Source: a virus (Duplodnaviria > Caudoviricetes). Taken from it: DNA of 64,000 nucleotides. A program made the translations under genes and the position numbers. Under the pieces are notes generated by a model that worked only from the letters and a program-made list of their open reading frames with translations, did not search any database and was not told where the DNA came from. Below are positions 5,239-32,450 of this stretch, one piece after another. How positions within the stretch are numbered: the stretch's first letter is position 1; the number at the start of each line of letters is the position of its first letter. The DNA lies in IMG/VR virus record IMGVR_UViG_3300032167_000004, positions 199,787 through 263,786 of that record; one strand, 5' to 3'.

Positions 5239-5327
5239 GGAGAGTTGTCCGAGTGGTTTAAGGAGCGAAACTTGAAATTTCGTGATGGGGAAACCCACCA
5301 AGGGTCCAAATCCCTTACTCTCCGCCA
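5239..5327 (+). tRNA. tRNA-Ser(UGA)
   Basis: Acceptor GGAGAGT/ACTCTCC, anticodon arm CGAAA-CTTGAAA-TTTCG, long variable arm, discriminator G, encoded CCA; T-loop reads TCCAAAT. Confidence 0.92.
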
Positions 5328-5328
5328 T

Positions 5329-5360
5329 AAAAAGAGGGTAATATTTTTTACCCTCTTTTT
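5329..5360. terminator. hairpin between the two tRNAs (terminator or processing signal)
   Basis: AAAAAGAGGGTAA/TTACCCTCTTTTT inverted repeat. Confidence 0.6.
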
Positions 5361-5365
5361 CATAT

Positions 5366-5440
5366 TGAGACGTCGTCAAGTGGTAAGACAACAGACTTTG
5401 ACTCTGTCACTCGCAAGTTCGAATCTTGCCGTCTCAGCCA
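5366..5440 (+). tRNA. tRNA-Gln(UUG)
   Basis: Acceptor TGAGACG/CGTCTCA, anticodon arm ACAGA-CTTTGAC-TCTGT, GTTCGAATC T-loop, encoded CCA. Confidence 0.95.
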
Positions 5441-5521: not shown

Positions 5522-5555
5522 AATAGTGATATTAAAATTAAGGAGGACAATTTTT

Positions 5556-7562
5556 ATGAATGAGCAAATCCCTGAAAATGTCCAAGGTATAATTAATTCA
5601 TTTTATGATAAATTATACATTATGGAAAATGAAATGGAGGATGTAAAACATTACAGGAATATAATTGATGAGGTTTTTGATCATTTACGAGCAGGATTTG
5701 AGATTAAAAGTCTTAGAGAATGTCCAGTACATTTTAAATTTCATAAAGATGATACTTTTATTCATACTTTACAATTAAGACATTTTCTAACAAATCTAAT
5801 TTTCTGGGAACCTCTTATTGAATTAGATTCAGTTAATTATCTGAATGAATCTTTCATTGTAGAATGTGGAAAGATTTCATCTGGATATATTAAAACTTAT
5901 ATTGATAATAAAATAATTATTCCATATAGAAATAAAATATCAAATAAGAAAATGAATAAATTGATTCATGATTTGATATTTAATTTAACAAAAATTTCTA
6001 CTGAATTCAATATTATATTAGGATTGAGTATGAATGTCGAATCTTTCATTGATGTTGCAAATAAGAATGAAAGATTTAATGAAATTATTCGTACTAAACT
6101 TGATCCTAATATGCAGCCCAGTGAAATTGAATCTCATCTTCATGATTTAATGAAAGAAGAGATTCAAATATTAATGAAAGAAGATAATGTACTAAGACCT
6201 ATGTTATTATCTGGTTCTGGTATTAAAGATAAACAGCTTTCTGAGTTTAGTATTAATATGGGTCTTAAACCTTCTCTTGAAGGTAGTACAATTCCTATTC
6301 CTATTAATTCCAACCTTCTTGTTGGCGGATTATCTACAGTTTCGGGATATTACATCGATGCCTTAGGCGGTCGGAAATCCCTTATCTTCAACAAGAATGT
6401 CATGGGTAAGTCGGGTTATTTCGCGCGTAAAAGTATGTTGTTAGTTTCTGATATGAAACTTAGACAAGATGAAAAAGTATGTAGAAGTGTACATCCTTTA
6501 CAGTTAGAAGTTAAGACTAAAGAACATTTTAGAAGATTAATTGGTAGAAAATATAGATTGCCTAATCAAAGAAATTATTCAATTCTTACTAATGAAGATA
6601 CCCATGTAATTGGTAAAAAGATTTTATTGAAATCTCCTATCACATGTGCATCTAATAAAGGTGTTTGTAAAGATTGTTATGGTCCATTATTGTTCCATAC
6701 TAACCAAGGTGGTGTTGGTATTGGTTCGTTTGCGGGAGCTATTATTACAAACCCACTATCTCAGGCTGTTCTTTCTTCTAAACATCTTTTAACTACTACT
6801 TCTGAACCTATTGAATTTAATGAAGATTTTAATAAATTCTTCAATTTAAATGCTAATGAAGTAACTATTAAGATTAGTGACGATTATTATATTGATGATC
6901 ACTCCCTTTTGTTAATTGATCAGAATATTATTACACTTGATGAATTAAATGAAGGTGAAATTAATAAGTTCTGTACAATTTATCATGTAAAGAATAATAG
7001 AACTAATGAGATTTATGAGATTAGAGAAACAACAGGTAAAGAGCTGTATCTGTCTCCTGAATTGATTGATATGATTGAGAAAAGAAAAAAGAATAAAGAT
7101 GGTATCTATGAAATTAAATTTATAGATATTCCTGATGACCAAAGACTATTCTTAATCCAAATTGAAAATAGAGAATTAACGAGGCCTCTATATAAGATTA
7201 TGGGATTACTCGATACTGTCGGAAAACGTGCAGAACTCGGGATTACTAATATACATGAACTAGCTCAGGTTTTCTTAGATCTATTGATCGAATCTAAGAT
7301 TAATGTTATGAGTGTTCATGCTGAGGTTATGTTAGCTCCTCTGATTAGATCTATGGAAGATATTCTTGAAAGACCTGATTTTAAAAGATATGATGCAATT
7401 GATGATATTCAGATGTTGACAATTAGTTCTGCATTGGAAAAACATCCTTCTGTATTGATTGGTCTTTCTTCTCAGTTCTTAGGTAGACAGTTAGTATCTC
7501 CGTTGACATTTAGAAAAACTGGAGAAAGTTTCATTGATCCTTTCTATAAGGATACTTTATGA
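5556..7562 (+). CDS. phage multisubunit RNA polymerase beta' C-terminal subunit (probably non-virion RNAP)
   Basis: AGGAGG RBS; bridge-helix-like KSGYFARK, Zn motif KSPITC..GVCKDCYG, trigger-loop-like NPLSQAVLSSKH, VHAEVM; followed by an SF2 helicase as in phiKZ-like phages. Confidence 0.88.
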   Translation: MNEQIPENVQGIINSFYDKLYIMENEMEDVKHYRNIIDEVFDHLRAGFEIKSLRECPVHFKFHKDDTFIHTLQLRHFLTNLIFWEPLIELDSVNYLNESFIVECGKISSGYIKTYIDNKIIIPYRNKISNKKMNKLIHDLIFNLTKISTEFNIILGLSMNVESFIDVANKNERFNEIIRTKLDPNMQPSEIESHLHDLMKEEIQILMKEDNVLRPMLLSGSGIKDKQLSEFSINMGLKPSLEGSTIPIPINSNLLVGGLSTVSGYYIDALGGRKSLIFNKNVMGKSGYFARKSMLLVSDMKLRQDEKVCRSVHPLQLEVKTKEHFRRLIGRKYRLPNQRNYSILTNEDTHVIGKKILLKSPITCASNKGVCKDCYGPLLFHTNQGGVGIGSFAGAIITNPLSQAVLSSKHLLTTTSEPIEFNEDFNKFFNLNANEVTIKISDDYYIDDHSLLLIDQNIITLDELNEGEINKFCTIYHVKNNRTNEIYEIRETTGKELYLSPELIDMIEKRKKNKDGIYEIKFIDIPDDQRLFLIQIENRELTRPLYKIMGLLDTVGKRAELGITNIHELAQVFLDLLIESKINVMSVHAEVMLAPLIRSMEDILERPDFKRYDAIDDIQMLTISSALEKHPSVLIGLSSQFLGRQLVSPLTFRKTGESFIDPFYKDTL

Positions 7563-7664: not shown

Positions 7665-9131
7665 ATGAATGAAAAACAACCAAAGATTGAAGTGAGACAT
7701 AGTGGTATATTAATTCATAATTATGAATTACATGATGCTCAAATATTGGAAGATTATTTAAGTGTATATGATCCGATTAAACATCGTAAATCTTATAAAG
7801 GTATGATGTGGGATGAAGAAAAAAAGATTCTTTATATTCCCAGAGGAGTTGATATTAATTTCCTTGAAAAGGTATTTAGAGAACCTGCAGAGATGAATTA
7901 TGAATGTAATCCTGTAGAAAATATTAGTATTCATGCAAAAATTCCACCCAGAGATAATAATCAAAGAAATGCAATAGCATTTCTTATTGGTCAAGGAAAA
8001 TATGAATATACTAAGAAATATTCTCAGATGTTATTACAGATGCCTCCCGGAAGTGGAAAGACTTTTGTAATGACAACAGCATTACAGTTCATTGGTATGA
8101 GAGCATTTATTATTGTACCTAATGAAAAAATAAAGAAACAAACTATTGTATCTTTATTGAAGTTTACTGATATTGGTAGTGAGCACATTATTGATGTAAG
8201 AGGAAAATCTGAAATCAATAAAATTATGAGAAAAGAATTACCTAAATGGAAAGTATATGTCGCATGTCATGGTACTTTGATTTCTCATGCTAAAAGAAAT
8301 GGATGGGAATCAATTGAAGAATTATTCAGACATACTAAAGTGGGTGTAAAGATTTATGATGAAGCCCACTTATATTTTGAAAATATTCTCAAATTAGATT
8401 TCCATACTAATGTAAAGAAAACTATTTATGTTACTGCAACATTCCAGAGAAGTGATTATTCTGAGAATATTCTCTTTAATAAATGCTTTAAAAATGTTAT
8501 ATCATTCCATATAGATAGTAAAGAGTATGATAAACGTCATACTATGTATCTAGGTATTCAATACAATTCTCATCCATCTATAGATAAGCAGACTTATATG
8601 ATGACTAGAATGGGTTTCAGCAAAATTAGGTATGCTAACTACCAAATTCAACAACAATCTTTCTTTGATGCTTTAGATTATACTATTAAATACTTTAAAG
8701 ATTATGAAGGAAAGATTCTTATTCTTACCTCCACTATTGATGGTGTAGAAAAGATTAAGAAATTTATTGATGATAGTTATGATAATATTTCTGTATCTTC
8801 TTATCATTCTAAAGTAAGTGAAGAAGATAGAGATAAAGCATTTACTGCTGATATTATCTGTACAACTCCTCAATCTGCTGGTGTAGGTGTTGATATTCCT
8901 GGTCTTAGAGTATGTATTATGTGTGAATCTTATTCTTCTCAAGTACAAGCTGAGCAAGTATCGGGAAGACTTAGAGAATACGGTCAAGGTAAAGATACTT
9001 ACTATGTAGAATTAGTTGACATTGGATTTCCTAGAGTATATAAAATGTGGAAAAGTAGACTTAGTGTGTTTAAGTTAAAATGTAAGAAAATGTTATCTAT
9101 TGACTTATCTACCAATAAAGATATTAAATAG
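7665..9131 (+). CDS. SF2 DExH helicase (UvsW/phiKZ gp75-like)
   Basis: PPGSGKT, YDEAH, VTAT, GVDIPGL, QVSGRLR; early motif at 7620-7632. Confidence 0.9.
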   Translation: MNEKQPKIEVRHSGILIHNYELHDAQILEDYLSVYDPIKHRKSYKGMMWDEEKKILYIPRGVDINFLEKVFREPAEMNYECNPVENISIHAKIPPRDNNQRNAIAFLIGQGKYEYTKKYSQMLLQMPPGSGKTFVMTTALQFIGMRAFIIVPNEKIKKQTIVSLLKFTDIGSEHIIDVRGKSEINKIMRKELPKWKVYVACHGTLISHAKRNGWESIEELFRHTKVGVKIYDEAHLYFENILKLDFHTNVKKTIYVTATFQRSDYSENILFNKCFKNVISFHIDSKEYDKRHTMYLGIQYNSHPSIDKQTYMMTRMGFSKIRYANYQIQQQSFFDALDYTIKYFKDYEGKILILTSTIDGVEKIKKFIDDSYDNISVSSYHSKVSEEDRDKAFTADIICTTPQSAGVGVDIPGLRVCIMCESYSSQVQAEQVSGRLREYGQGKDTYYVELVDIGFPRVYKMWKSRLSVFKLKCKKMLSIDLSTNKDIK

Positions 9132-17174: not shown

Positions 17175-18905
17175 TTAATGTTGTTCAGTCATAATAGAAA
17201 TATACTGATTACTGGAATTCAGAAGAGAGATAATAGAAGCGGTAGCTTTCAGAATCTCAATATCAGTTTCACAAGAATTAATAATATCCTTAGAATATGT
17301 GTCATGAATTAGATCATAACAAATAGGTTCTTCACTATTCATACACTTATCAATAATAGCAGTGAAGAAATCATCAGTCATTTCTTTTTCAGTATACTTA
17401 TTACGAAGAATAGTTTTAAATACATTTAGGAATGCTTTTTTAATAATAGCAAACATTTCATGTTCATATTCTTCCATACAAGTATTATTTTTCTTTTCTT
17501 CTTCTGTCATCTGATTAATGATATAAGGAATAATTAAAGATCCACCAATTGTATAACCATGAGTAAATGCAGATTCGCAAGCTTTAACTGCGTCCTCAAC
17601 AAGGTCAAAATTAGCAGTCTTTTCTAATTCAGAATTACCACCAACATGGATGATACCCATATGTCCATTCAACTTAGTCATTCTCTGCTTCAATTCATTC
17701 AGCTTAATATCTACAATACCTCTCTTTTGATTTTCATCAAGAGCTTTATTGTATTTATTAGTAGCATCTGCAACTGCTTTATTATAAAGATTTTCATTTC
17801 TACTAGTAAAACCTCTAATAAAAGTAGTCTTTTCAGAAATTACCATTGAATCAACAAAACCAACATATTCCATTACAGTCTCAGGAGTAATTTCATCAAT
17901 AAACTGTTCACTGATAACCTGGCAACCACACATGATTGCGAAGTCATTATACAGATCATGAGAAACATTATTAACTAAAGATGCTCTAGTATACACAATA
18001 GTAGAGATACCTCTGGTTTTATATTCAACAATAATATTCTTACGAATATTATCAAGTAGGAATTTATCGTAATGAGGTGCAATAACAACTAATCTCTTAT
18101 TATTATGAGCAGCAGTCGTTGCAGCTTCACTAATAATAGGAAGTGCTCTTTCGATATCAATCTTATGGTCAAACATAATAACCATAGGATTATTAATCAC
18201 ACAAGTACCATCATCATTAGTAGTAAAAATATTATCAATATATGTAATATTACCTCTATAACCATCAATAATTTCATATGTAGTCTCATTAGTCTTAGAC
18301 TTAACATACTCAATAGAAGGATTATTGGTAGTCATATAAATATCTCTAATGATTTTAGAAATCTGATCATCACCATTAGTAGAAATATATGCGAGCTTAT
18401 AAATTTCTTCAAATGTTTCTTTATTGACTTGAATAGAAGAAGCATAAATTTTATCAACAAGATAATTTACACATTTATTCAAGGTTTCAATAAATTCTTT
18501 AGGACGCATTGTATTAATAATGCTTTCATGTGCTTTCATTTCTTTAAGAATAGAATTGGCAGCAACAATAGAAGTTGTAGAACCATCACCGACTCTAATA
18601 ACAACCTGAGCACTAATTCTCAGAAGAAGCATCATGATATTATTACTAACAGTATCATTGAATCGGATATTCTTCAATACTGTCCATCCATCCTTAGTAA
18701 TGTGGCATTCGCCATACTTTTCAATAATAGTTGTAGAACCATAAGGTCCTAAAGTCTTAGTTAATGCATTTGATACCTGAGAAAATACATTATCAATCTT
18801 TCTTTTAAATTCACTTTCTTCAATTACATTCCAGGCGAGATATTCTTTATAATAACGGCTCTCACCCGCACGACAAGAAATTTTCTTTTCATTCTGGTTT
18901 TCCAT
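17175..18905 (-). CDS. groEL: phage chaperonin (GroEL/Cpn60 family)
   Basis: TLGPYG, ITKDGWTVL, VGDGSTT, VEDAVKA; ATG 18905 after AGGAGG. Confidence 0.92.
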   Translation of the reverse strand: MENQNEKKISCRAGESRYYKEYLAWNVIEESEFKRKIDNVFSQVSNALTKTLGPYGSTTIIEKYGECHITKDGWTVLKNIRFNDTVSNNIMMLLLRISAQVVIRVGDGSTTSIVAANSILKEMKAHESIINTMRPKEFIETLNKCVNYLVDKIYASSIQVNKETFEEIYKLAYISTNGDDQISKIIRDIYMTTNNPSIEYVKSKTNETTYEIIDGYRGNITYIDNIFTTNDDGTCVINNPMVIMFDHKIDIERALPIISEAATTAAHNNKRLVVIAPHYDKFLLDNIRKNIIVEYKTRGISTIVYTRASLVNNVSHDLYNDFAIMCGCQVISEQFIDEITPETVMEYVGFVDSMVISEKTTFIRGFTSRNENLYNKAVADATNKYNKALDENQKRGIVDIKLNELKQRMTKLNGHMGIIHVGGNSELEKTANFDLVEDAVKACESAFTHGYTIGGSLIIPYIINQMTEEEKKNNTCMEEYEHEMFAIIKKAFLNVFKTILRNKYTEKEMTDDFFTAIIDKCMNSEEPICYDLIHDTYSKDIINSCETDIEILKATASIISLLNSSNQYISIMTEQH

Positions 18906-18957
18906 TATTTTTCCTCCTTTTAATAAATTGGAACTTATGTTAATGTTAATCACCTAA

Positions 18958-22589: not shown

Positions 22590-24533
22590 TTATATATTAA
22601 GAATATTAGAAAAATATTCTTTCTTAGATGTTTTAATAGTATCTAATCCTAGAGATTCCAATACAGGATAGAATTTATTTAATACATTATAAGAAATTGT
22701 ATCATAATCAATATAAGGAATTAACCACTCTGGAATCTTGTCAACATTTCTAGGAATTGCGATAACAGATAATCCTTTACTAGAAATTCTTTCATCAGGA
22801 TTATTTAAAATCTTTTCATTTAAAATTGTATACATTTCCGGATTCTCTACTCTTAACTTATTAATACTTTTTTCTTCATTAAGAGTAACCTTAACAATAT
22901 CCAATTTAGTAGGAAGTTCAATCTCTATATTAGGATAGAAAGTATTCCAAGCTATAACAGCTCTAACACCTTGCATCTTTAAAGGATCTGCATAAGCTTC
23001 TAATTCTTTAACAGATACAGGAATAAGATACTTCTTTTCACCATTTTTAAGTGTCTCAATGATTTCTGATTCAAATGCTTCAATATCATTAAGAATAGAA
23101 ACGATATTGATATCTTTACTACTAATAATTCTCTTCTTAATAATATCAAGAAATTTAGCTTTAGTTTCTACAGTTGCCGTAGATTTCATGAAATCATGAC
23201 CCTTTATATCCAGCTTCTCTGGCCAGATCTCATCACCCTCTCTAAGACGAATAGAACTAAAGTATCTTTTCTTCTTAGATGCCAATACAACACGGGACAT
23301 TAAGAATTCATTCTTAATATTAATAAAGTGTCTAAAATCCTTAGGAATATTTGCATGTTTAGTATATCTTCCTAATACAGTTTGCATCATATTAGTAATA
23401 ACAAATGCCATTGTATTAACTGCAATAAATCTAAGTTCTTCTCTATCACGACCATCATTTTTATAATCTGGATCAATGATATTATTAAACATAAATTCAA
23501 CCCACGGATTTAAATTCAAGAAATTACTATCAGTATCAATTGTTAAAACAACTTTTCTTTTATCATTCTTTAATCTTTGAATACGATTAATAGGAGAATA
23601 ATTATATAAAACAAATTCCTTATAATAAGTCCATAACTCTTCTAAATATTCTTTAGATGTTTCTGGAATTTTATTAGGATCTTTAAACTCCTTTGTATTT
23701 CTAACAATTAATACTAATAAAGAAATAATTTTATGATGCATAGAAAATTCATAAATATTATTCTTATAATAAATCTTATTTAATTGATCTTGTGTTAGTG
23801 TCATTAAATAAGAATATAATAATTCGGTATAAGATTCTTGATAATTATAGAAGGTGTCAACTAATCTATCATATACCTGATCAACTGTTACATTTATTAA
23901 AAATGTAGAATCTAATGTATATTTTTCATTAATAACATTTGTTAAAAATGTAAAACATTCATTAATATTATTGAATAATGTATTATTAGCTAGAAAAGAT
24001 TCAAATGCTTGTTCTGTTGTACTAATTAATGACTGACCCGAACCGGTAACAGATGGTGCTGTATACATATTAAATAGAAATGATGCAGCATTACCAAATG
24101 TACCATAAATAGAGTTTGCTGAAATCTTTTCAGACAACTGTTTTCTATCAAATGTTTGATATTCGTAGGAAGTTTTATCCTTAATGAATTTAAGTTGTCC
24201 TTTAAACTTCTTACGAGAAGTTAAGAATTTTTGAATCATCATTGCAAGGGGATTCTTAACCTGATGTTGATTCTTAAATAAAACACCATGACCTGCACAA
24301 ATTGGGTCAGTGTTATGAATCCAATTTATAGTATTCAACAGATTTGTATTAATCTGTTTATTAATATAGTTATTATCTAGAATAACTCTTGGATTCTTTA
24401 TATTCTCATTGATAATATCATCTAAGAATTCATTAATTTCTTTTTTACTTATTTCTGGATATAATTGATGTAGTATTTTTCTATTGGTTTTTTTCCATTC
24501 CTTTAGAAAAATGTATTCGTCACTATTAATCAA
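22590..24533 (-). CDS. family B DNA polymerase, part carrying motifs B and C
   Basis: KISANSIYG (motif B), TIDTDSNF (motif C), KKRY, IKG; early motif at 24572-24584. Confidence 0.88.
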   Translation of the reverse strand: MINSDEYIFLKEWKKTNRKILHQLYPEISKKEINEFLDDIINENIKNPRVILDNNYINKQINTNLLNTINWIHNTDPICAGHGVLFKNQHQVKNPLAMMIQKFLTSRKKFKGQLKFIKDKTSYEYQTFDRKQLSEKISANSIYGTFGNAASFLFNMYTAPSVTGSGQSLISTTEQAFESFLANNTLFNNINECFTFLTNVINEKYTLDSTFLINVTVDQVYDRLVDTFYNYQESYTELLYSYLMTLTQDQLNKIYYKNNIYEFSMHHKIISLLVLIVRNTKEFKDPNKIPETSKEYLEELWTYYKEFVLYNYSPINRIQRLKNDKRKVVLTIDTDSNFLNLNPWVEFMFNNIIDPDYKNDGRDREELRFIAVNTMAFVITNMMQTVLGRYTKHANIPKDFRHFINIKNEFLMSRVVLASKKKRYFSSIRLREGDEIWPEKLDIKGHDFMKSTATVETKAKFLDIIKKRIISSKDINIVSILNDIEAFESEIIETLKNGEKKYLIPVSVKELEAYADPLKMQGVRAVIAWNTFYPNIEIELPTKLDIVKVTLNEEKSINKLRVENPEMYTILNEKILNNPDERISSKGLSVIAIPRNVDKIPEWLIPYIDYDTISYNVLNKFYPVLESLGLDTIKTSKKEYFSNILNI

Positions 24534-25299: not shown

Positions 25300-27144
25300 A
25301 TGAAATTTTTAGGACCCGATGTAGATTCTTCAGATGTAATGTTGCTTGATATATTATATCATGCACCTAGAAAAGAATACGATAGGATTGATGCTATCGA
25401 TATTATATATAAAACTTTATCAGATGGTGAAAAACATATAAAAACTATTAAGAATCCTACAATTGATATTTATTTCGCTAAAGAAGAATATCGAAATTAT
25501 GATTATAATAAAAATTTCATGGAAATAGAAAATTGTGATGTTCATACTTGTGAATATAAAAAACTTCCTTGGTATATAGCTGAGCAAGCAGGTGAAAATT
25601 ATGTAAATGAATTAAGACGTATGGTTGAAAATGGAAGATTTAGAGATATTCAAAAAATTCATACCTATCCATATGTTTTTGGTTCTGATATACCTATAGA
25701 TGTATTCTATAGAACTCAGTGGTTATTAGAATATGATAATGAAAAAATGAAACCTCTTACTAAGATATTCCTTGATATTGAGGTTGATACTATTGATATA
25801 GTAGGTTTCGTCAGAGATGGTTCTTGTCCTATTAATGCAGTTACTATTGTAGATGATATAACTAATTCAGTATATACATTTTTATTAGATACTCACAATA
25901 ATTCTCAAATTGATGAGTTTAAAAATGATATTGATAATTTTATTGATGAATTACATGAAATGTTTGATGAATCTTATGGAGTATTATCATACTATATTTA
26001 TATGTATGATGATGAAAAAGATTTATTGAAAGATATGTTTAGATTAATTCATACTCTTAAACGAGATTTCTGTATGATATGGAACGGTATGGGTTTCGAT
26101 ATTCCATATATAATTGAACGGTTAAAAACTTTGAATATTGATCCTTATGATGTATTTTGTCATAAGGATTTTAAATATAAAATGTGTAAGCTTCATGAAG
26201 ATAATAAAAATTTTCAGGTTGCTAATAAAGGAAGTTTCTTCAAAACATCTTCCTATACTAAATATATAGATCAGATGATTCTATATGCAGCAACTAGAAA
26301 AGGTCAAAGTGAATTAAGATCTAATTCTCTTAATAGTATTGCCCAAGCTGAATTGGGTGATGAAAAGTTAGATTATACAGATGAAGCAAATATTAAAACT
26401 TTACCATATGTTAATTATCGTAAGTTTGTTATATATAACATTAAAGACGTTCTTCTTCAATTAGGAATTGAAAGAAAAGCAAATGATATTGATAATTTGT
26501 ACTTGCGTGGTTATGCAAATTGTACTGAGTATGATAAAGTTTTTAAACAGACAGTAACTTTGAAAGCTCGTGCTTATTACGAATATATTCTTCAAAATAA
26601 TATTTTAGGTAATAATATTAATGTCTTTAGTATTGATACTGGTAGTGGTTTTACTGGTGCCTTAGTTGGAAATCCATTGTTAAATACAAATACGGGTATA
26701 ATTCTATTTGGTAAACAGAGCATGTATGTATTCGATAATGTTATAGATATGGATTTCAGCTCAATGTACCCGCATATCATAATCTCCTTCAACATTGAAC
26801 GTCATACTATGATTTGTAAAATTATTATTCCTGATGTTACTGAAGATAGATATGACCATATCTTTAATGATGAAGATATTATTGATGTAGAGTATAGTGA
26901 AGATGATTCTGAAGAAGAAAAAGAAATTGAACTTGGTTATGATTCTGGTAAAGACTTCCTTGATAATTATTTAACTAAAGATACATTATCTATGGGTACT
27001 AAATGGTTTAATTTACCTGATGTTAATGAAGTTCATAATCAGTTTAAAAAGAGATTTAATGTTAAGCCTAAGAAGAGAATTAACTTAACTAATATTATTT
27101 CTTATATTGCTGATGGTTTAAATATTAATATTACCAAGGATTAA
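25300..27144 (+). CDS. family B DNA polymerase, part carrying 3'-5' exonuclease and motif A
   Basis: ExoI FLDIEVD, ExoII WNGMGFDIPY, ExoIII YNIKDV, motif A DMDFSSMYP. Confidence 0.88.
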   Translation: MKFLGPDVDSSDVMLLDILYHAPRKEYDRIDAIDIIYKTLSDGEKHIKTIKNPTIDIYFAKEEYRNYDYNKNFMEIENCDVHTCEYKKLPWYIAEQAGENYVNELRRMVENGRFRDIQKIHTYPYVFGSDIPIDVFYRTQWLLEYDNEKMKPLTKIFLDIEVDTIDIVGFVRDGSCPINAVTIVDDITNSVYTFLLDTHNNSQIDEFKNDIDNFIDELHEMFDESYGVLSYYIYMYDDEKDLLKDMFRLIHTLKRDFCMIWNGMGFDIPYIIERLKTLNIDPYDVFCHKDFKYKMCKLHEDNKNFQVANKGSFFKTSSYTKYIDQMILYAATRKGQSELRSNSLNSIAQAELGDEKLDYTDEANIKTLPYVNYRKFVIYNIKDVLLQLGIERKANDIDNLYLRGYANCTEYDKVFKQTVTLKARAYYEYILQNNILGNNINVFSIDTGSGFTGALVGNPLLNTNTGIILFGKQSMYVFDNVIDMDFSSMYPHIIISFNIERHTMICKIIIPDVTEDRYDHIFNDEDIIDVEYSEDDSEEEKEIELGYDSGKDFLDNYLTKDTLSMGTKWFNLPDVNEVHNQFKKRFNVKPKKRINLTNIISYIADGLNINITKD

Positions 27145-27160
27145 CCTCCTTGGTAATATT
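27127..27160 (+). terminator. intrinsic terminator
   Basis: AATATTACCAAGGA/TCCTTGGTAATATT followed by T run. Confidence 0.75.
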
Positions 27161-27183: not shown

Positions 27184-27196
27184 AAATATATATTAT
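27184..27196 (+). promoter_or_regulatory. early-type promoter motif for the helicase-Myb pair
   Basis: AAATATATATTAT 45 nt upstream of ATG 27242. Confidence 0.7.
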
Positions 27197-27241
27197 AGAT
27201 ATAGGTATAAATAATAAATTACTAAAAAGGAGATTTACATC

Positions 27242-29071
27242 ATGCTATTACCTCACAATATACCTGTGTATAAAAAATTAAAAGAACACTTATCAAAAAA
27301 TAAAGATGCAATTATCATTACTGCAACAGGTACTGGTAAAAGTTACCTTGTTGCAGAATATATTGAAGAGTATAATTTAAATGCTCTTGTTATTTGCCCA
27401 AGAAGATCGCTCTGTAAATATTGGTCAAAATTGTCTGAAAATGTATCACCTATAACATACCAATATTTCGAAAAACATATTGACGATCTTATCAATGTAA
27501 ATGAAATTATAGGTTTCTTTGATATTTTCGTATTCGACGAAGCCCATCATGCCGGTGCTAAAAAATGGGGTAAAGCAATCGAAAAATTTAAAGAGGTTTG
27601 TAAAAAGCCTATTATCGGTCTTACTGCAGATCCTAAACGATATACTGATGGTGGTAGAGATGTATCTATTGAAATCTGGGATGGATCTATTGTAGAAGGG
27701 TACACTTTAAATGATTCAATTGGTAAAATTTTGCCTAATGTATCATACACATGTGCATTATATGATACAAATGGTTTAATGGAAAATATCCCTAGTGGAG
27801 TGTCTGATAAATTACTCAAACAGCTTGAATATTCTATTAAAAATACAAAGACTTGTGTTGAAATTTTACAGACAGAAATTAGTGAAAGTTTTCCTCATAA
27901 AGGAATTGTATTCGTTGATAGAATCCATACTATTAAAAATGGTATCGATATTATTAATAAAGCATTTCCTAATGAAAAAGTATGGGCAATTCATTCAAAA
28001 CAATCTGAAAAAATGAATGATATGTATATTAATGAATTTAATAATTCTGAATCTGGATTTATTGTTGCAGTTGATATGCTGAATGAGGGTATTCATATTA
28101 GTACTGTTGATATTGTCATTATGTTAAGAAAAACTTCTTCTCCCACAATATTCTTCCAACAAATTGGTAGAGGAATGTCTGTAAATGGTAAATATCTTCA
28201 TATCTTTGACTTTGTGTCTAATCATAATTCCTTAAAAATTACATCTAGTAAATCTTCGAAGCCAATTAAATTATTTGATACAGAGACGATATATAAACGA
28301 TCGGAACAATCTATCATTCATGATTATAGTAAAGATATTGTTGATGTATTGAATGATATTAAAAAATCATTATTTAATTTTTGGACTGAAGAGGAAGATA
28401 AAATTATTCGTAAATATTATCCTATTGAAGGATCTAAAGTTGCAGAAAGATTACCCGGTAGAACTAAAGATACATGTATATATAGGGCAAAAACATTAAA
28501 AATCAATAGTGATAAATTTTGGACTAAAGAAGAGGATGAAATTCTTAAGAAGTATTATCCTATTGAAGGTATGGATGTTGTAAAAAGATTACCTGGCAGA
28601 ACACGAAATGGATGTAAAGCTAGAGCAAGACTTTTTAATGTATTAGTGTTACATCATTGGACACCTGAAGAGGATGAAATTCTTAAGAAGTATTATCCTA
28701 CTGAGGGTGGTGATGTATATAAAAGATTACCAGGTAGAACTTCTAGTGCATGTGTTAGTAGAGCATCTAATTTTATTATTCAAATGAGACCATACTGGAC
28801 TGAAGAGGAAGATAAAATTATTCGTGAATATTATCCTACTGAAGGATCTAAAGTTGCAGAAAGATTACCCGGTAGAACTTCTAGTGCATGTAAAAATAGG
28901 GCAAAAATATTAAAGGTATTAACTAATGTAAATCATTGGACACCTGAAGAGGATGAAATTCTTAAGAAGTATTATCCCACTGAGGGAAGTAAGGTTGCAG
29001 AAAGATTACCTAATAAAACTCCTTCTGCATGTAAAGCTAGAGCAAATAAGCTCAAAATTAAACGCATTTAG
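27242..29071 (+). CDS. SF2 helicase/translocase with 5 C-terminal Myb/SANT-like repeats
   Basis: ATGTGKS, FDEAHH, GLTADP, LNEGIHI, QQIGRG; 5 repeats WTxEEDxI(L/I)xxYYPxEG..V..RLPxRT..xCxxRA. Confidence 0.88.
   Translation: MLLPHNIPVYKKLKEHLSKNKDAIIITATGTGKSYLVAEYIEEYNLNALVICPRRSLCKYWSKLSENVSPITYQYFEKHIDDLINVNEIIGFFDIFVFDEAHHAGAKKWGKAIEKFKEVCKKPIIGLTADPKRYTDGGRDVSIEIWDGSIVEGYTLNDSIGKILPNVSYTCALYDTNGLMENIPSGVSDKLLKQLEYSIKNTKTCVEILQTEISESFPHKGIVFVDRIHTIKNGIDIINKAFPNEKVWAIHSKQSEKMNDMYINEFNNSESGFIVAVDMLNEGIHISTVDIVIMLRKTSSPTIFFQQIGRGMSVNGKYLHIFDFVSNHNSLKITSSKSSKPIKLFDTETIYKRSEQSIIHDYSKDIVDVLNDIKKSLFNFWTEEEDKIIRKYYPIEGSKVAERLPGRTKDTCIYRAKTLKINSDKFWTKEEDEILKKYYPIEGMDVVKRLPGRTRNGCKARARLFNVLVLHHWTPEEDEILKKYYPTEGGDVYKRLPGRTSSACVSRASNFIIQMRPYWTEEEDKIIREYYPTEGSKVAERLPGRTSSACKNRAKILKVLTNVNHWTPEEDEILKKYYPTEGSKVAERLPNKTPSACKARANKLKIKRI
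28382..29068 (+). repeat. 5 in-frame tandem repeats of about 46 aa (Myb-like array)
   Basis: Recurrent DNA core such as TGGACACCTGAAGAGGATGAAATTCTTAAGAAGTATTATCC. Confidence 0.92.
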
Positions 29072-29079
29072 GAATAGAT

Positions 29080-29107
29080 GGTTGGGTGGGGTGATCTCCA
29101 CCCAACC
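29080..29107. other. GC-rich intergenic hairpin without U tail
   Basis: GGTTGGGTGG/CCACCCAACC between the two helicase genes. Confidence 0.55.
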
Positions 29108-29148
29108 TATAATTAATATGTTATCTTATAAAAAAGGAGACTTACACC

Positions 29149-31701
29149 ATGTTATTAGAACATAATAAACCTGTATATAAAAGGTTAAAAGAAACATTAA
29201 CAAATATCAAAGATACTGTTATTGTCACTGCAACTGGAACAGGTAAAAGTTATTTAATGGACGAATATATCGATGAATTTGATATGAAGGCATTAATTAT
29301 TTGTCCTACAATTGGTATGGGTGAAGATTGGTATAAATTATCTGATAGGGTAAGTTGTATTACATACCACCGATTTCATAAACATGTTGATGAGTATATT
29401 AAAAATGTTAATGAATATGATATTTATATTTTTGATGAGGCTCATCGTACAGGAGCTAAAGAATGGGGTAAATCTATAAATAAATTTAAAGATAAATGTA
29501 ATAAACCTATTGTTGGTTTAACTGCAACTCCTATTCGGTATACTGATAATTGTAGAGATATTACTATTGAGATGTTCGACGGGTCGGTTGTACATGGTTA
29601 CTCCATTAAAGAAGCTTTGGATGAAGGAATTCTTCCCAATATCAATTATATTTGTGCATTGTATGATACTACTGGAATTAAAGAAAAAATTCCTAAAGAT
29701 GTATCAAAAGAATTAATTGGTAGACTTGATCTGTGTATTCAAAATACTAAAAGATGTGTTGAAATTCTTAGATCTGAACTATCTAGTGGTAAAAATAAAG
29801 GGATTGTTTTTGTTGATAAAATTGAAAGTATTAATGACGGTATCAATATCATTAAAAAAGCTTTCCCGAATGAAAAAGTATGGTCTATTCATTCTAAACA
29901 AAGTAATCAACTCAATTCTCAGTGTATTGATGAATTTAATAGATCCAGTCATGGATATATTGTATCTGTTAATATTCTCAATGAAGGTAAACATGTGGAT
30001 GGAATAGATACTATTATCATGTTAAGAAAAACATCTTCTCCGACAATATTTATTCAGCAATTAGGTAGAGGGCTTTCTGTTAAAGGAAAGAATATAAATG
30101 TATTTGATTTTGTATCGAATCATTTATCTATTCGTGTTATGAATCAACGCCAAAATATAATCCGTACATTAGCATCCCCTTCAGCTAGAGTAAGTAAAAA
30201 ATCTAGTCAGTTAATTATTACTGATTATACTGGTGAATTCTATGCAATTCTTGAGACAATCGAAAATTTAAATAGTAGAACATACTGGACACCTGAAGAG
30301 GATGAAATTCTTAAGAAATATTATTACGTTGAAGGTGAGGATGTTGTAAAAAGATTACCTGGTAGAAATATGAATTCATGTACACACAGAGCTCATAGAC
30401 TCGGAATATTAAATTCTGCTAGATTCTGGACACCTGAAGAGGATGAAATTCTTAAGAAGTATTATCCCACTGAGGGAAGTAAGGTTGCAGAAAGATTACC
30501 TAATAAATCCAATACAGCATGTTATGCTCGTGCAAAAGTACTAAGTGTAAAATTCATTAATACGACTTGGACACCTGAAGAGGATGAAATTCTTAAGAAG
30601 TATTATCCCACTGAGGGAAGTAAGGTTGCAGAAAGATTATCTGGTAGAACTGTATCAGTATGTAGAAATAGGGCTAAAAGTATTGGTGTAACTAAACTTG
30701 GTTGGACACCTAAAGAGGATGAAATTCTTAAGAAGTATTATCCTATTGAAAGTTTAAGTAAGGTTGCAAAAAGATTGCCTAGTAAAACTAAAGATGCATG
30801 CTCACATAGAGCTGAGAAATTAAATTTAATTAAAGTAAATAATCTTAAAATTAAATGGTCTGAAGAAGAGGATGAAATTCTTAAGAAGTATTATCCTATT
30901 GAAGGTGAAGATGTTGCAGAAAGATTACCTGGTAGAACTAAAAGTGCTTGTAAATATAGAGCAAATGAGTTGAAATTGAAACATATTAATCTAAATGCAT
31001 GGTCTGAAGAAGAGGATGAAATTCTTAAGAAGTATTATCCTATTGAAGGTGAAGATGTTGCAGAAAGATTACCTGGTAGAACTAAAAGTGCTTGCAAAAA
31101 CAGATCTAATATATTAAATATCAATAAGCCTAGAAAGATATTATGGTCTGAAGAAGAGGATGAAATTCTTAAGAAGTATTATCCTATTGAAGGTGTACTT
31201 GGAGTTATAAAAAGATTGCCTAATAAATCTCGTAATGCATGTGAGTGTAGAATAGATGAATTATGTCTTATAAAATCTAAATCTATTTGGACTAAAGAGG
31301 AAGAAGATATTTTGAGAGAATATTATCCTATTGAAGGTGAAGATGTTGCAAAAAGATTACCTGGTAGAACTATGAGAGCATGTGTCATAAGAGCTAGAGC
31401 AATAGGTGTATTTATGTTATCCAAAGCTTGGACACCTGAAGAGGATGAAATTCTTAAGAAGTATTATCCTATTGAAGGATTTAAAGTTGTGAAGAGATTG
31501 CCTGGTAGAACTAAAAGTGCTTGTGTAAATAGAGCTAAACTCTTTAATTTACACAGTTCTAGAAATTGGACACCTGAAGAGGATGAAATTCTTAAGAAGT
31601 ATTATCCTATTGAAGGTGAAGATGTTGCAGAAAGATTACCTGGTAGAACTAAAAGTGCTTGTGTGTCTAGGGCTAGGAAATTGGGATTATACTACAACTA
31701 A
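29149..31701 (+). CDS. SF2 helicase/translocase with 10 C-terminal Myb/SANT-like repeats (paralog of 27242-29071)
   Basis: ATGTGKS, FDEAHR, GLTATP, LNEGKHV, QQLGRG; 10 repeats; RBS region nearly identical to paralog. Confidence 0.88.
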   Translation: MLLEHNKPVYKRLKETLTNIKDTVIVTATGTGKSYLMDEYIDEFDMKALIICPTIGMGEDWYKLSDRVSCITYHRFHKHVDEYIKNVNEYDIYIFDEAHRTGAKEWGKSINKFKDKCNKPIVGLTATPIRYTDNCRDITIEMFDGSVVHGYSIKEALDEGILPNINYICALYDTTGIKEKIPKDVSKELIGRLDLCIQNTKRCVEILRSELSSGKNKGIVFVDKIESINDGINIIKKAFPNEKVWSIHSKQSNQLNSQCIDEFNRSSHGYIVSVNILNEGKHVDGIDTIIMLRKTSSPTIFIQQLGRGLSVKGKNINVFDFVSNHLSIRVMNQRQNIIRTLASPSARVSKKSSQLIITDYTGEFYAILETIENLNSRTYWTPEEDEILKKYYYVEGEDVVKRLPGRNMNSCTHRAHRLGILNSARFWTPEEDEILKKYYPTEGSKVAERLPNKSNTACYARAKVLSVKFINTTWTPEEDEILKKYYPTEGSKVAERLSGRTVSVCRNRAKSIGVTKLGWTPKEDEILKKYYPIESLSKVAKRLPSKTKDACSHRAEKLNLIKVNNLKIKWSEEEDEILKKYYPIEGEDVAERLPGRTKSACKYRANELKLKHINLNAWSEEEDEILKKYYPIEGEDVAERLPGRTKSACKNRSNILNINKPRKILWSEEEDEILKKYYPIEGVLGVIKRLPNKSRNACECRIDELCLIKSKSIWTKEEEDILREYYPIEGEDVAKRLPGRTMRACVIRARAIGVFMLSKAWTPEEDEILKKYYPIEGFKVVKRLPGRTKSACVNRAKLFNLHSSRNWTPEEDEILKKYYPIEGEDVAERLPGRTKSACVSRARKLGLYYN
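30286..31698 (+). repeat. 10 in-frame tandem repeats of 44-51 aa (Myb-like array)
   Basis: Same conserved DNA core, variable second half. Confidence 0.92.
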
Positions 31702-31702
31702 C

Positions 31703-31737
31703 AAAAAAGAAAGACTCTTAATGAGTCTTTCTTTTTT
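31703..31737 (+). terminator. intrinsic terminator
   Basis: AAAAAAGAAAGACTC/GAGTCTTTCTTTTTT. Confidence 0.8.
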
Positions 31738-31799
31738 TTGTATTAATTTTAAATATATATTATAACTATATGATAAAAACTTAAAAGGAGTAATTTATT

Positions 31800-32450
31800 A
31801 TGATATACGAATTCAAAAAAGGTGAATTAAATAAATTAAATAATCTTAATCAAGATTTAAAAACTATATTTAATAATTATATTATTCTTGATAATGGATT
31901 TATTTATGGGGATTCTATTCTTCGTAAAGGAACCCATATGGTTCATACTCAATTTAAAATGTTCTTTGAATATCCAGATAGTTATGTTATTAGAATTAAT
32001 AGTAAAGATTTATTTGAAACTATTAAGAATAATAAAAAGATTATAACTTGTATTAGAATAATCGATAATATTATATATCTTGGTGGAGAAGAATCTTTAT
32101 TTAAAATTGGCGATATGATTAGTTTTAGATGGAGTCAATTATCAAATGAATTAATGGAATATATGTCATTAATAAACTTGATGGTAGAAGATAATAAATC
32201 TAATAGTACGTTTACTATTCTTTCTACGGAAGACACTATCGATTTAGTTAATAATGAATATAAAAATATTCGTAAAAATAAGTATAAAACAAGAATAACT
32301 AAAGAAGTTATTCCTGGATTAAAGAAATCTCATGAAGTAGTATTGGATTTCTTTGATCATACTAAGGATAAATCCTTATTCTATTTAGGAATTAAGGTAA
32401 GAAGAGCATATTGTACAAGTTATCATATCTATACTTGTTTACATATGTAA
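31800..32450 (+). CDS. hypothetical early protein
   Basis: AAGGAG RBS; early motif at 31751-31763. Confidence 0.75.
   Translation: MIYEFKKGELNKLNNLNQDLKTIFNNYIILDNGFIYGDSILRKGTHMVHTQFKMFFEYPDSYVIRINSKDLFETIKNNKKIITCIRIIDNIIYLGGEESLFKIGDMISFRWSQLSNELMEYMSLINLMVEDNKSNSTFTILSTEDTIDLVNNEYKNIRKNKYKTRITKEVIPGLKKSHEVVLDFFDHTKDKSLFYLGIKVRRAYCTSYHIYTCLHM

Follow-up and report, generated by a model that had tools for sequence, protein, structure and literature searches.

What does a phage do with an ATP-driven motor that ends in a long array of DNA-binding-type repeats? Two adjacent genes raise this question in a window of 64,000 nucleotides, the final 64 kb of the 263,786-bp IMG/VR virus record IMGVR_UViG_3300032167_000004, which is rated complete. 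Gene 1 (positions 27,242-29,071, plus strand, 609 amino acids) and gene 2 (29,149-31,701, plus strand, 850 amino acids) each encode a superfamily 2 (SF2) ATPase followed by Myb-like repeats of about 47 amino acids. A preliminary description made from the sequence had presented them as adjacent paralogues, each an intact ATPase with 5 or 10 repeats, and both reading frames, the helicase motifs and the repeat counts are as it described. We propose that both genes encode DNA motors and that a Myb/GcrA array of several modules, each with a recognition face of its own, serves as the tether; we give this reading an even chance of being right. In its favour, the residues that vary most between repeats align with those that read bases in the two nearest solved relatives, GcrA and c-Myb.

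The motors themselves look functional. The gene 1 core (amino acids 1 to ~335) and its connector helix (amino acids 336-380) lie at 27,242-28,381 and the gene 2 core with connector (amino acids 1-379) at 29,149-30,285, both on the plus strand. Pfam matches were ResIII (E 6.9e-18) and Helicase_C (E 1.7e-15) for gene 1, and ResIII, Helicase_C and SWI2_SNF2 for gene 2; both cores have two RecA-like domains with motifs I, II (DEAH), III and VI. In an alignment of 24 homologues, the SF2 motifs GTGKS, DEAH, TA[DT] and QQxGRG are without change, with G30, G32, K33, D99, E100, H103, T128, A129, Q306, Q307, G309 and R310 invariant, and the ATPases therefore look functional. The two helicase domains share 55% identity, with synonymous sites saturated (proportion of synonymous differences, pS, 0.605), and are the sole copies of this helicase in the record. 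The window's other PHROG-16 helicase (7,665-9,131), considered as a relative, is unrelated to them in sequence.

In an AlphaFold2 (AF2) model of gene 1 (predicted local distance difference test, pLDDT, 80), the core scored Z ~22 to XPB, INO80, RadD and FANCM; in a structure search with the whole protein, every match was a generic SF2 one and the scores were tied at Z 21-22, too close to place the motor in a subfamily. By sequence, the nearest solved protein is the type IV restriction ATPase SauUSI (7clg_A, E 1e-20 over amino acids 86-326). The PADLOC families mREase_IV and PbeA matched at E 1e-21 to 1e-22, and the PHROG 16 match of the core carries the label 'DNA helicase'. No nuclease family was found in either gene with Pfam, PHROG or NCBIfam, in agreement with the first reading of the sequence, which saw no nuclease domain.

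The arrays make up the C-terminal parts of both proteins. Gene 1 has 5 repeats (amino acids 381-609; nucleotides 28,382-29,068, or 28,382-29,071 with the stop codon) and gene 2 has 10 (amino acids 380-850; 30,286-31,698, or 30,286-31,701 with the stop codon). With repeat boundaries anchored on a W[TS]x[EK]E[ED] motif, the period is 44-51 amino acids in both arrays, and Tandem Repeats Finder reported a period of 138 nt with 4.8 copies in gene 1 and of 141-144 nt with 9.7 copies in gene 2. The Pfam Myb_DNA-binding profile (PF00249; cut-off 24.4 bits) matched gene 1 in 5 stretches (E 3.7e-36, 123.4 bits) and gene 2 in 9 (E 2.3e-62, 207.3 bits), the tenth repeat of gene 2 being found by eye. Across the 263,786-bp record, 12 of the 14 PF00249 matches exceed the Pfam gathering threshold, and the 15 repeat units are the genome's only Myb matches. 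The GcrA profile (PF07750; cut-off 26.9 bits) also matched gene 2 (E 7.8e-13, 49.5 bits), with profile positions 2-45 aligned to amino acids 806-847 in repeat 10, and scored gene 1 under the cut-off at 19.7 bits. Only profile positions 2-46 of 155 were covered, leaving the C-terminal, sigma70-interacting part of GcrA unmatched.

Sequence and structure comparisons agree on the fold of the repeats. A family repeat profile built from 125 three-repeat segments matched c-Myb R1R2R3 (1h88) at E 2.6e-15, and the phage motif LPGRT-xx-A-[CI]-XX-R-A aligns with LPGRT-DN-A-I-KN-H-W of c-Myb R3. An AF2 model of gene 2 repeats 8-10 (pLDDT 94) had DNA-bound c-Myb as its top Foldseek match (1h88_C, E 1.6e-5, probability 1.00), with further matches to other multi-Myb DNA complexes (SNAPc4, Trichomonas vaginalis Myb2/3 and WER). 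For a single repeat, a structure search independent of Foldseek gave the GcrA DNA-binding domain as the best match (5yiu_A; Z 7.0, root-mean-square deviation (rmsd) 1.4 A over 47 of 49 residues, 30% identity); such a Z is modest in general but is here concordant with the sequence evidence. Single-domain rmsd values to GcrA, WER, CPC and SNAPc4 were 1.4-1.7 A. Modelling thus recovers the Myb three-helix fold that the preliminary description had recognized from the letters, and the repeats are best modelled as atypical, GcrA-like Myb three-helix helix-turn-helix (HTH) domains. The arrays are net basic (+15 in gene 1 and +19 in gene 2). Helix 3 plus linker is basic in all of the repeats, and helix 1, at -1 to -4 per repeat, is strongly acidic.

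One further feature of the scaffold is a cysteine at repeat position 32, present in 14 of the 15 window repeats (for example at codons 28,475-28,477 and 30,379-30,381); family-wide the position holds C, I or V. It aligns with Cys130 of c-Myb R2, a buried and redox-sensitive residue of the recognition helix.

Variation between the 15 repeats is concentrated at a few sites. Positions 29, 30, 33, 34, 37 and 38 have a mean entropy of 2.55 bits, against 0.68 bits for the remaining 35, and none of 200,000 random six-position sets was as variable. The five most variable positions in the window are 38, 34, 33, 37 and 29, and all 15 six-residue signatures are unique. Across the wider family (705 repeats from 121 members), the same six positions, together with 18 and 21, are the most variable, and the face that they form is rich in K, R, N, Q, S and T, as is typical of residues that read bases. 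Positions 33 and 34 are the dipeptide between C32 and R35 on which attention had first fallen; the dipeptides listed then (IY, KA, VS, KN and KA in gene 1; TH, YA, RN, SH, KY, KN, EC, VI, VN and VS in gene 2) are all correct.

These are the positions at which solved relatives touch bases. In the GcrA-DNA crystal structure, a single domain contacts 7 bp through six residues (R33, N34, I37, G38, H41 and R42), and phosphate/backbone contacts include T32 and K39 (PMC5887438). In c-Myb, the base readers are K128, E132, N136, N179, K182, N183, N186 and S187 (PMC3203581). A HMMER alignment places the c-Myb readers on repeat positions 30, 33, 34, 37 and 38, and K182/N183 fall on the dipeptide, as the comparison with the base-reading Lys-Asn pair of c-Myb had anticipated. 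The six GcrA base-contact residues would correspond to positions 29, 30, 33, 34, 37 and 38, and GcrA T32 and K39 to the conserved T28 and R35, on a mapping that combines the Pfam aligned range (amino acids 806-847 to profile positions 2-45) with the range of the structural alignment. The GcrA sequence used for this mapping is consistent with all 13 residue labels in PMC5887438. By these alignments, the positions that vary most in the phage repeats are occupied by base readers in GcrA and in c-Myb, the two nearest solved relatives. The central claim of the preliminary description, hypervariability at the predicted base-reading positions, therefore holds, and more widely than stated: the dipeptide is part of a set of at least six variable positions, and the linker varies too.

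Our reading of the locus can be set out as a mechanism. The two proteins would be accessory phage motors, with a ResIII/SauUSI-like, restriction-type SF2 ATPase core that lacks a nuclease and carries 5 or 10 HTH recognition modules. The third helix of each module would sit in the major groove, with conserved T28 and R35, together with W1 and Y13, holding the DNA backbone and the six exposed residues at positions 29, 30, 33, 34, 37 and 38 facing the bases. Every module's face differs, and each array should therefore have its own composite DNA preference, for which a polydactyl zinc-finger protein or a multi-Myb protein is a closer model than a transcription activator-like effector (TALE). Each module probably reads several base pairs; in the nearest structural relatives, one domain covers 3-7 bp rather than a single base pair. 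Specific DNA reading by the arrays is plausible. We infer that the arrays bind DNA, each with its own specificity, and could deliver the motor to a long target in host, competitor or the phage's own DNA, where it would translocate, unwind or strip proteins; relatives carrying Mrr or HNH domains would cut DNA instead. The arrays evolve by unequal recombination, with gain or loss of repeats, and by gene conversion of the 5' two-thirds of the unit; near-identical helicases also exchange entire arrays, and the recognition face turns over fast.

The DNA of the repeats records part of this history. In many repeats, even across the two genes, the leading 84 nt (28 codons) are 0-2 nt apart and the next 39 nt have 12-20 differences. 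Repeat 5 of gene 1 and repeat 2 of gene 2, for example, differ at 2 of 84 nt and then at 17 of 39, and repeats 5 and 6 of gene 2 at 0 of 84 and then at 12 of 39. Synonymous divergence at the conserved helix-3 codons is 0.61, equal to that of the helicase domains, and helices 1 and 2 have therefore been homogenized by gene conversion, with helix 3 and the linker retaining sequences that are old and distinct. The almost invariant scaffold noted at the outset is in part a product of DNA-level gene conversion over the first ~84 nt. A diversity-generating retroelement was also considered as a source of the variation and can be set aside, because a reverse transcriptase (PF00078) was not found in the 263,786-bp record.

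Repeat number changes as well. In gene 2, a one-repeat indel polymorphism maps to repeats 5 and 6 (30,856-31,143): other samples yielded a 204-kb contig (L014) that is 100% identical over ~9.5 kb except for a clean 144-nt, one-repeat deletion at the repeat 5/repeat 6 identity tract. The sequencing runs are all Logan contigs that break inside the repeats, and they speak neither for nor against the 9/10-repeat polymorphism. In gene 1, one Logan contig (run X6) joins 28,425 to 28,840, passing from repeat 1 to repeat 4 and skipping 414 nt, or 3 repeats; the junction may be a two-repeat allele of gene 1 or an assembly collapse, since 40 nt fit both sides.

Fusions of this kind form a large metagenomic family. 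We found at least 719 helicase-Myb relatives at E<=1e-5, with 2-11 repeats each, and 61% of family units have a period of 46-48 amino acids. Among 1.84 billion proteins, the array profile by itself reached 949 representative clusters at E<=1e-30, a number that rises to 6,120 at E<=1e-10, and labels of metagenome-assembled genomes place hosts in Lachnospiraceae, other Clostridia, Bacilli and Bacteroidia, among others. A helicase is present in 21 of the 82 top array proteins; the others are bare arrays or arrays joined to HNH, Mrr_cat, sigma70_r4 or other HTH domains. One relative (P0033) reads Mrr_cat (E 1.9e-27), helicase, six Myb repeats and an I-HmuI NUMOD-like module, and another (P0075) ends in an AP2-like domain. 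These partners (Mrr_cat, I-HmuI NUMOD-like, AP2, HNH and sigma70_r4) are predicted DNA enzymes or DNA binders, which favours a DNA-directed role for the arrays.

Deposited phages are a different matter. A megablast search with 10 kb found no close relative among them, and by tblastn no deposited phage covers at least 80% of the fusion and no cultured phage in the collection has it in full; array-only matches occur in just 33 deposited records. Among these, Listeria phage B025 gp44 and B054 gp65 match 75-91% of the array at 30-33% identity. PHROG 323 ('transcriptional regulator, D5-like') gave E values of 4.9e-56 (gene 2) and 7.7e-23, and T5 D5 itself aligned to the array profile with an hhalign probability of 11% (E 0.0027) and to Pfam Myb at E 0.0043, under threshold. 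The closest genomic helicase relatives, at 31-33% identity over amino acids 2-332, have the architecture [Mrr]-ResIII/Helicase_C followed by 7-9 HA repeats (9 HA stretches in L020 and 7 in L030); PF03457 (HA) had no match in either window protein. Full-text literature searches returned no paper on phage helicase-Myb-array fusions, the nearest mention being that certain jumbo phages have an expanded set of RsfA-like transcription factors of Myb type (PMC7824862). The novelty first attached to a Myb-type fusion is lower than assumed, given a metagenomic family of more than 700 proteins and the same helicase clade already known with HA-repeat tails.

In 16 disjoint ortholog pairs with helicases 84-96% identical, residues differed at 8.7% of helicase, 26.8% of scaffold, 38.4% of linker and 55.4% of recognition-face positions. 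The array is wholly replaced in 7 of the 16, and such swaps occur between helicases that are 87-95% identical. The ratio of non-synonymous to synonymous substitution rates (dN/dS) was measured in three pairs. The helicase (0.14) and scaffold (0.21) fall below the pooled recognition face, which is three to five times less constrained than the rest and evolves at a roughly neutral rate. For the six positions, the individual pairs gave 2.09 (p 0.044), 0.30 and 0.58; we dropped the claim of positive selection, as the high value of one pair was unreplicated in the other two. These patterns fit rapidly changing specificities and, equally, weak constraint. In the P0075 cluster, the array has 0 of 333 changes and the helicase 25 of 414, a contrast that resembles purifying selection but for which a recombination breakpoint is an equally good explanation, and we drew no conclusion from it.

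Several observations weigh against the proposed reading. The pooled recognition-face dN/dS is 0.70 (0.98 against gene-wide dS), about neutral, and with the value of 2.09 unreplicated, weak constraint explains the variability as well as diversifying selection does. In 5-repeat orthologues whose helicases are 48% identical, same-index repeats have 12.4% of recognition residues in common, no more than repeats of different index (11.3%). The family has no recurrent vocabulary and hence no small code: its 668 repeats contain 201 different dipeptides (effective number 135), and the six-residue signatures number 638. On the structural side, the repeat-to-repeat orientation in the model is uncertain (predicted template-modelling score, pTM, 0.58; global template-modelling (TM) score 0.29 to c-Myb). 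Of the three canonical Myb tryptophans, W1 alone is retained; at the third position (c-Myb W185), 585 of 674 repeats have Ala36, with Y12/Y13 serving the core in its place, and the repeats are therefore the compact bacterial or phage (GcrA-like) version of the fold. Finally, the position of the gene varies between phages.

The main rival is a low-specificity, multivalent DNA anchor. On this account the array would grip the backbone, as the SANT-SLIDE tail of ISWI/Chd1 does, and space the motor on any DNA, with helix-3 variation reflecting weak constraint. It accommodates the near-neutral recognition face, the lack of positional conservation of recognition residues between orthologues, the largely unique signatures and a repeat number that ranges freely from 2 to 11; the residues that helix 3 does conserve, T28 and R35, are the backbone-contact equivalents. 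It sits less easily with a helix 3 that is distinct in 15 of 15 repeats despite gene conversion homogenizing the rest, with the elevated dN/dS of the one ortholog pair and with a face enriched in K, R, N, Q, S and T. The nearest structural relatives, GcrA and c-Myb R2R3, are moreover sequence-specific, and arrays of this kind also occur in fusions with homing-type nucleases and NUMOD modules, enzymes and modules that depend on recognizing a site. We regard a non-specific anchor as possible, though on balance somewhat unlikely.

The surroundings of the genes lead to a second alternative. The cassette lies between the exonuclease half of a family-B DNA polymerase (PolB-N; 25,300-27,144, plus strand) and a 216-amino-acid reading frame directly downstream (31,800-32,450, plus strand) that is probably a phage sliding clamp. 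This frame had no Pfam and no PHROG match; ESM Atlas comparisons offer a lead, with similarity to sliding clamps of the phage gp45, PCNA and beta types (features 0.85-0.88, TM 0.46-0.51). The left border is a terminator-like hairpin followed by a T-run (27,127-27,160, plus strand), found by consensus scan, which ends the upstream PolB-N unit; the right border is a bidirectional terminator-like hairpin at 31,703-31,737 (-18.5 kcal/mol, z -6.1). The promoter-like motif AAATATATATTATA (27,184-27,197, plus strand) stands 45 nt upstream of the gene 1 start codon, and another copy, at 31,751, belongs to the clamp-like gene. At no more than one mismatch, the window holds 14 copies against 2.04 expected, a seven-fold enrichment that none of 100 shuffles reached; sites include 5,509, 7,620, 25,235, 27,184, 31,751, 34,894, 46,578, 60,842 and 63,476. 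It precedes the RNA polymerase (RNAP) beta-like, helicase, PolB-N, clamp-like and AAA genes and is not found before the capsid or sheath genes. Enrichment and placement therefore point to a real promoter-like class, and the promoter motif reported ahead of the two genes can be regarded as part of a candidate phage promoter class that lies mostly before replication and transcription genes.

Such a setting would suit a replication-origin or replisome helicase like herpesvirus UL9 or T5.108, whose array binds the phage's own origin or iterons and whose motor opens it, the paralogues serving two sites. Its case includes the position between PolB-N and the probable clamp, with an AAA ATPase further on, the promoter motif common to the cassette and the replication genes, the 'DNA helicase' label of PHROG 16 and the use by phages of origin-binding SF2 helicases. 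Of these, T5.108 (L179:4546-7332) carries a GenBank note, 'replication origin binding', derived from InterPro SANT/Myb and DEAD-helicase domains; current Pfam gives it Herpes_ori_bp only (E 1.3e-7) and no Myb domain. We considered T5.108 as a relative and rejected it, as it has no sequence similarity to the window's proteins. The gene's position is not conserved, its neighbourhoods in other jumbo-phage contigs consist of accessory genes, and the cassette, with its own terminators, looks moron-like. Arrays are swapped between 87-95% identical helicases and repeat number differs in otherwise identical genomes, which is hard to reconcile with a co-evolved origin. A dedicated origin helicase is, in our judgement, decidedly unlikely.

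Those other neighbourhoods suggest a different setting. Contigs of other jumbo phages have the helicase-Myb gene in the company of small accessory genes, with HNH_3, Tad8, NADAR, GmrSD_N or Lar-like genes as neighbours, and it also occurs in prophage-like regions. The GmrSD_N (DUF262) neighbour overlaps the 3' end of the helicase-Myb gene. The loci that carry GmrSD_N, Tad8, NADAR and Lar-like (restriction-alleviation) genes (L099:9001-11804, L098:16114-16401 and L181:8982-9326) hint at a defence or counter-defence setting. The position of the gene is not conserved, and context therefore says little about role; mobility, array swaps and neighbours point weakly to an accessory, possibly conflict-related function rather than one in core replication.

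A true TALE-like code, in which each repeat would use its C32-R35 dipeptide to recognize one fixed base or a few and the array would spell out a long target, was the framing of the preliminary description. The alignment of the dipeptide with c-Myb K182/N183, a near-identical scaffold at a spacing of 46-48 amino acids in 61% of units, and the gain and loss of repeats through recombination, as in TALEs, all speak for it. The number of variable positions, six or more plus the linker, speaks against it, as do the 201 dipeptides (effective number 135) and the 638 unique signatures among 668. The fold is Myb, not TAL, and related domains read 3-7 bp each, a single GcrA domain touching 7 bp through its six residues. 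We therefore abandon the RVD-like framing as very unlikely.

Also very unlikely, and by a small margin the least likely of all, is a protein-binding, SANT-like array that brings the ATPase to host or phage proteins such as nucleoid proteins or RNA polymerase: eukaryotic SANT domains bind histone tails (CoREST, NCoR and MTA matched at Z 4.5-5.2) and helix 1 is strongly acidic, but the top matches are DNA-binding Myb and GcrA forms, the arrays are net basic, their fusion partners are DNA enzymes and, by the c-Myb alignment, Myb repeats that bind DNA normally have an acidic helix 1 too.

The remaining features of the window help to place the phage. The window belongs to a gut jumbo phage with hallmark genes of the phiKZ-like kind: a multisubunit-RNAP beta-like gene of phiKZ type (5,526-7,562, plus strand; phrog_3015), a two-gene PolB, a GroEL-like chaperonin (17,175-18,953, minus strand; phrog_5725, E 9e-90), and major head and tail-sheath genes. 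The GC content of the window is ~27%, and near-identical DNA is present in animal-faeces and bovine-gut metagenomes. The polymerase half of PolB (22,590-24,533, minus strand) and PolB-N lie on opposite strands with a 150-amino-acid reading frame between them (phrog_2927 and phrog_3011; PF03104 and PF00136). Genes for tRNA-Ser(tga) and tRNA-Gln(ttg) lie at 5,239-5,440 (plus strand). Between genes 1 and 2, a 12-bp GC-rich hairpin without a T-run (29,080-29,107, plus strand; -23.5 kcal/mol, z -4.2, 0 of 200 shuffles as stable) stands out in this 27%-GC genome; it is possibly a partial terminator or an RNA-stability element, with an attenuator or a processing site also candidates.

What would follow depends on whether the arrays are specific. 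This is a very large family without a name, with a conserved Myb/GcrA scaffold and a fast-changing face; its arrays come and go, and near-identical motors swap them. Specific arrays would determine the DNA choice of phage motors and of the related Mrr and HNH nucleases and could offer a new modular scaffold. If they are unspecific, the family would be a prokaryotic-virus counterpart of the 'motor plus SANT tail' of ISWI/Chd1 and a hint on HA-repeat helicases. The boldest extension, which we think unlikely, is a natural and evolvable 'polydactyl Myb' system in which ~47-amino-acid modules read short DNA words through six helix-3 residues and phages re-programme the targets of motors and, in relatives, of nucleases by shuffling, adding and mutating modules in conflicts with hosts or competing phages. 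If it were true, the natural arrays, which number in the thousands, could yield a recognition code for the design of DNA binders. Zinc-finger, TALE and, for RNA, PPR/PUF arrays have been fruitful for science and technology, and no comparable system is established for phages.

Set beside known systems, the two proteins combine features that otherwise occur apart. Three of the likenesses are by analogy only, with no family relationship beyond generic folds. ISWI/Chd1 joins an SF2 motor of Snf2 type to a C-terminal, Myb-like SANT-SLIDE DNA-binding tail; C2H2 zinc-finger arrays and TALEs share a conserved scaffold, variable contacts and the gain, loss and conversion of repeats. Zinc fingers read ~3 bp through 4 positions and TALEs 1 bp through 2, whereas at least six positions vary here. 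Among multi-HTH proteins of phages, the PHROG 323 members of Listeria phages B025 and B054 are stand-alone arrays without a helicase, and T5 D5 is at best a remote relative.

For the repeat itself, GcrA of Caulobacter (5yiu/5yiv; N-terminal part of PF07750) is the closest comparison, with the best single-domain structure and contact sites that coincide with the variable positions. It is, however, a transcription factor with one such domain and a sigma70-binding C-terminal domain, in contrast to 5-10 copies on an SF2 ATPase. The multi-Myb proteins c-Myb R1R2R3, SNAPc4, T. vaginalis Myb2/3 and WER share the LPGRT..A motif and tandem repeats with short linkers; the phage unit is ~41 amino acids with a 5-8-amino-acid linker rather than 51-52, and the phage arrays run to 10-11 copies rather than 2-5 and are viral, not eukaryotic, and motor-fused.

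For the whole protein, SauUSI, the R subunits of type I and III systems and PbeA likewise place a motor before a C-terminal target-recognition part. The window genes differ from them in lacking PLD, Mrr or another nuclease, in having a Myb array in place of an SRA-like domain, and in being phage-encoded rather than host defence genes. HA-repeat (PF03457) helicases come closest in design: a motor followed by 7-9 three-helix repeats, with or without Mrr, parallels the Mrr-helicase-Myb relative P0033, the difference being that the repeats are HA there and Myb here. We know of no test of HA-array function. By sequence, then, the two genes are the Myb-array variant of a known, functionally unexplained design, the helicase with a helical-repeat tail.

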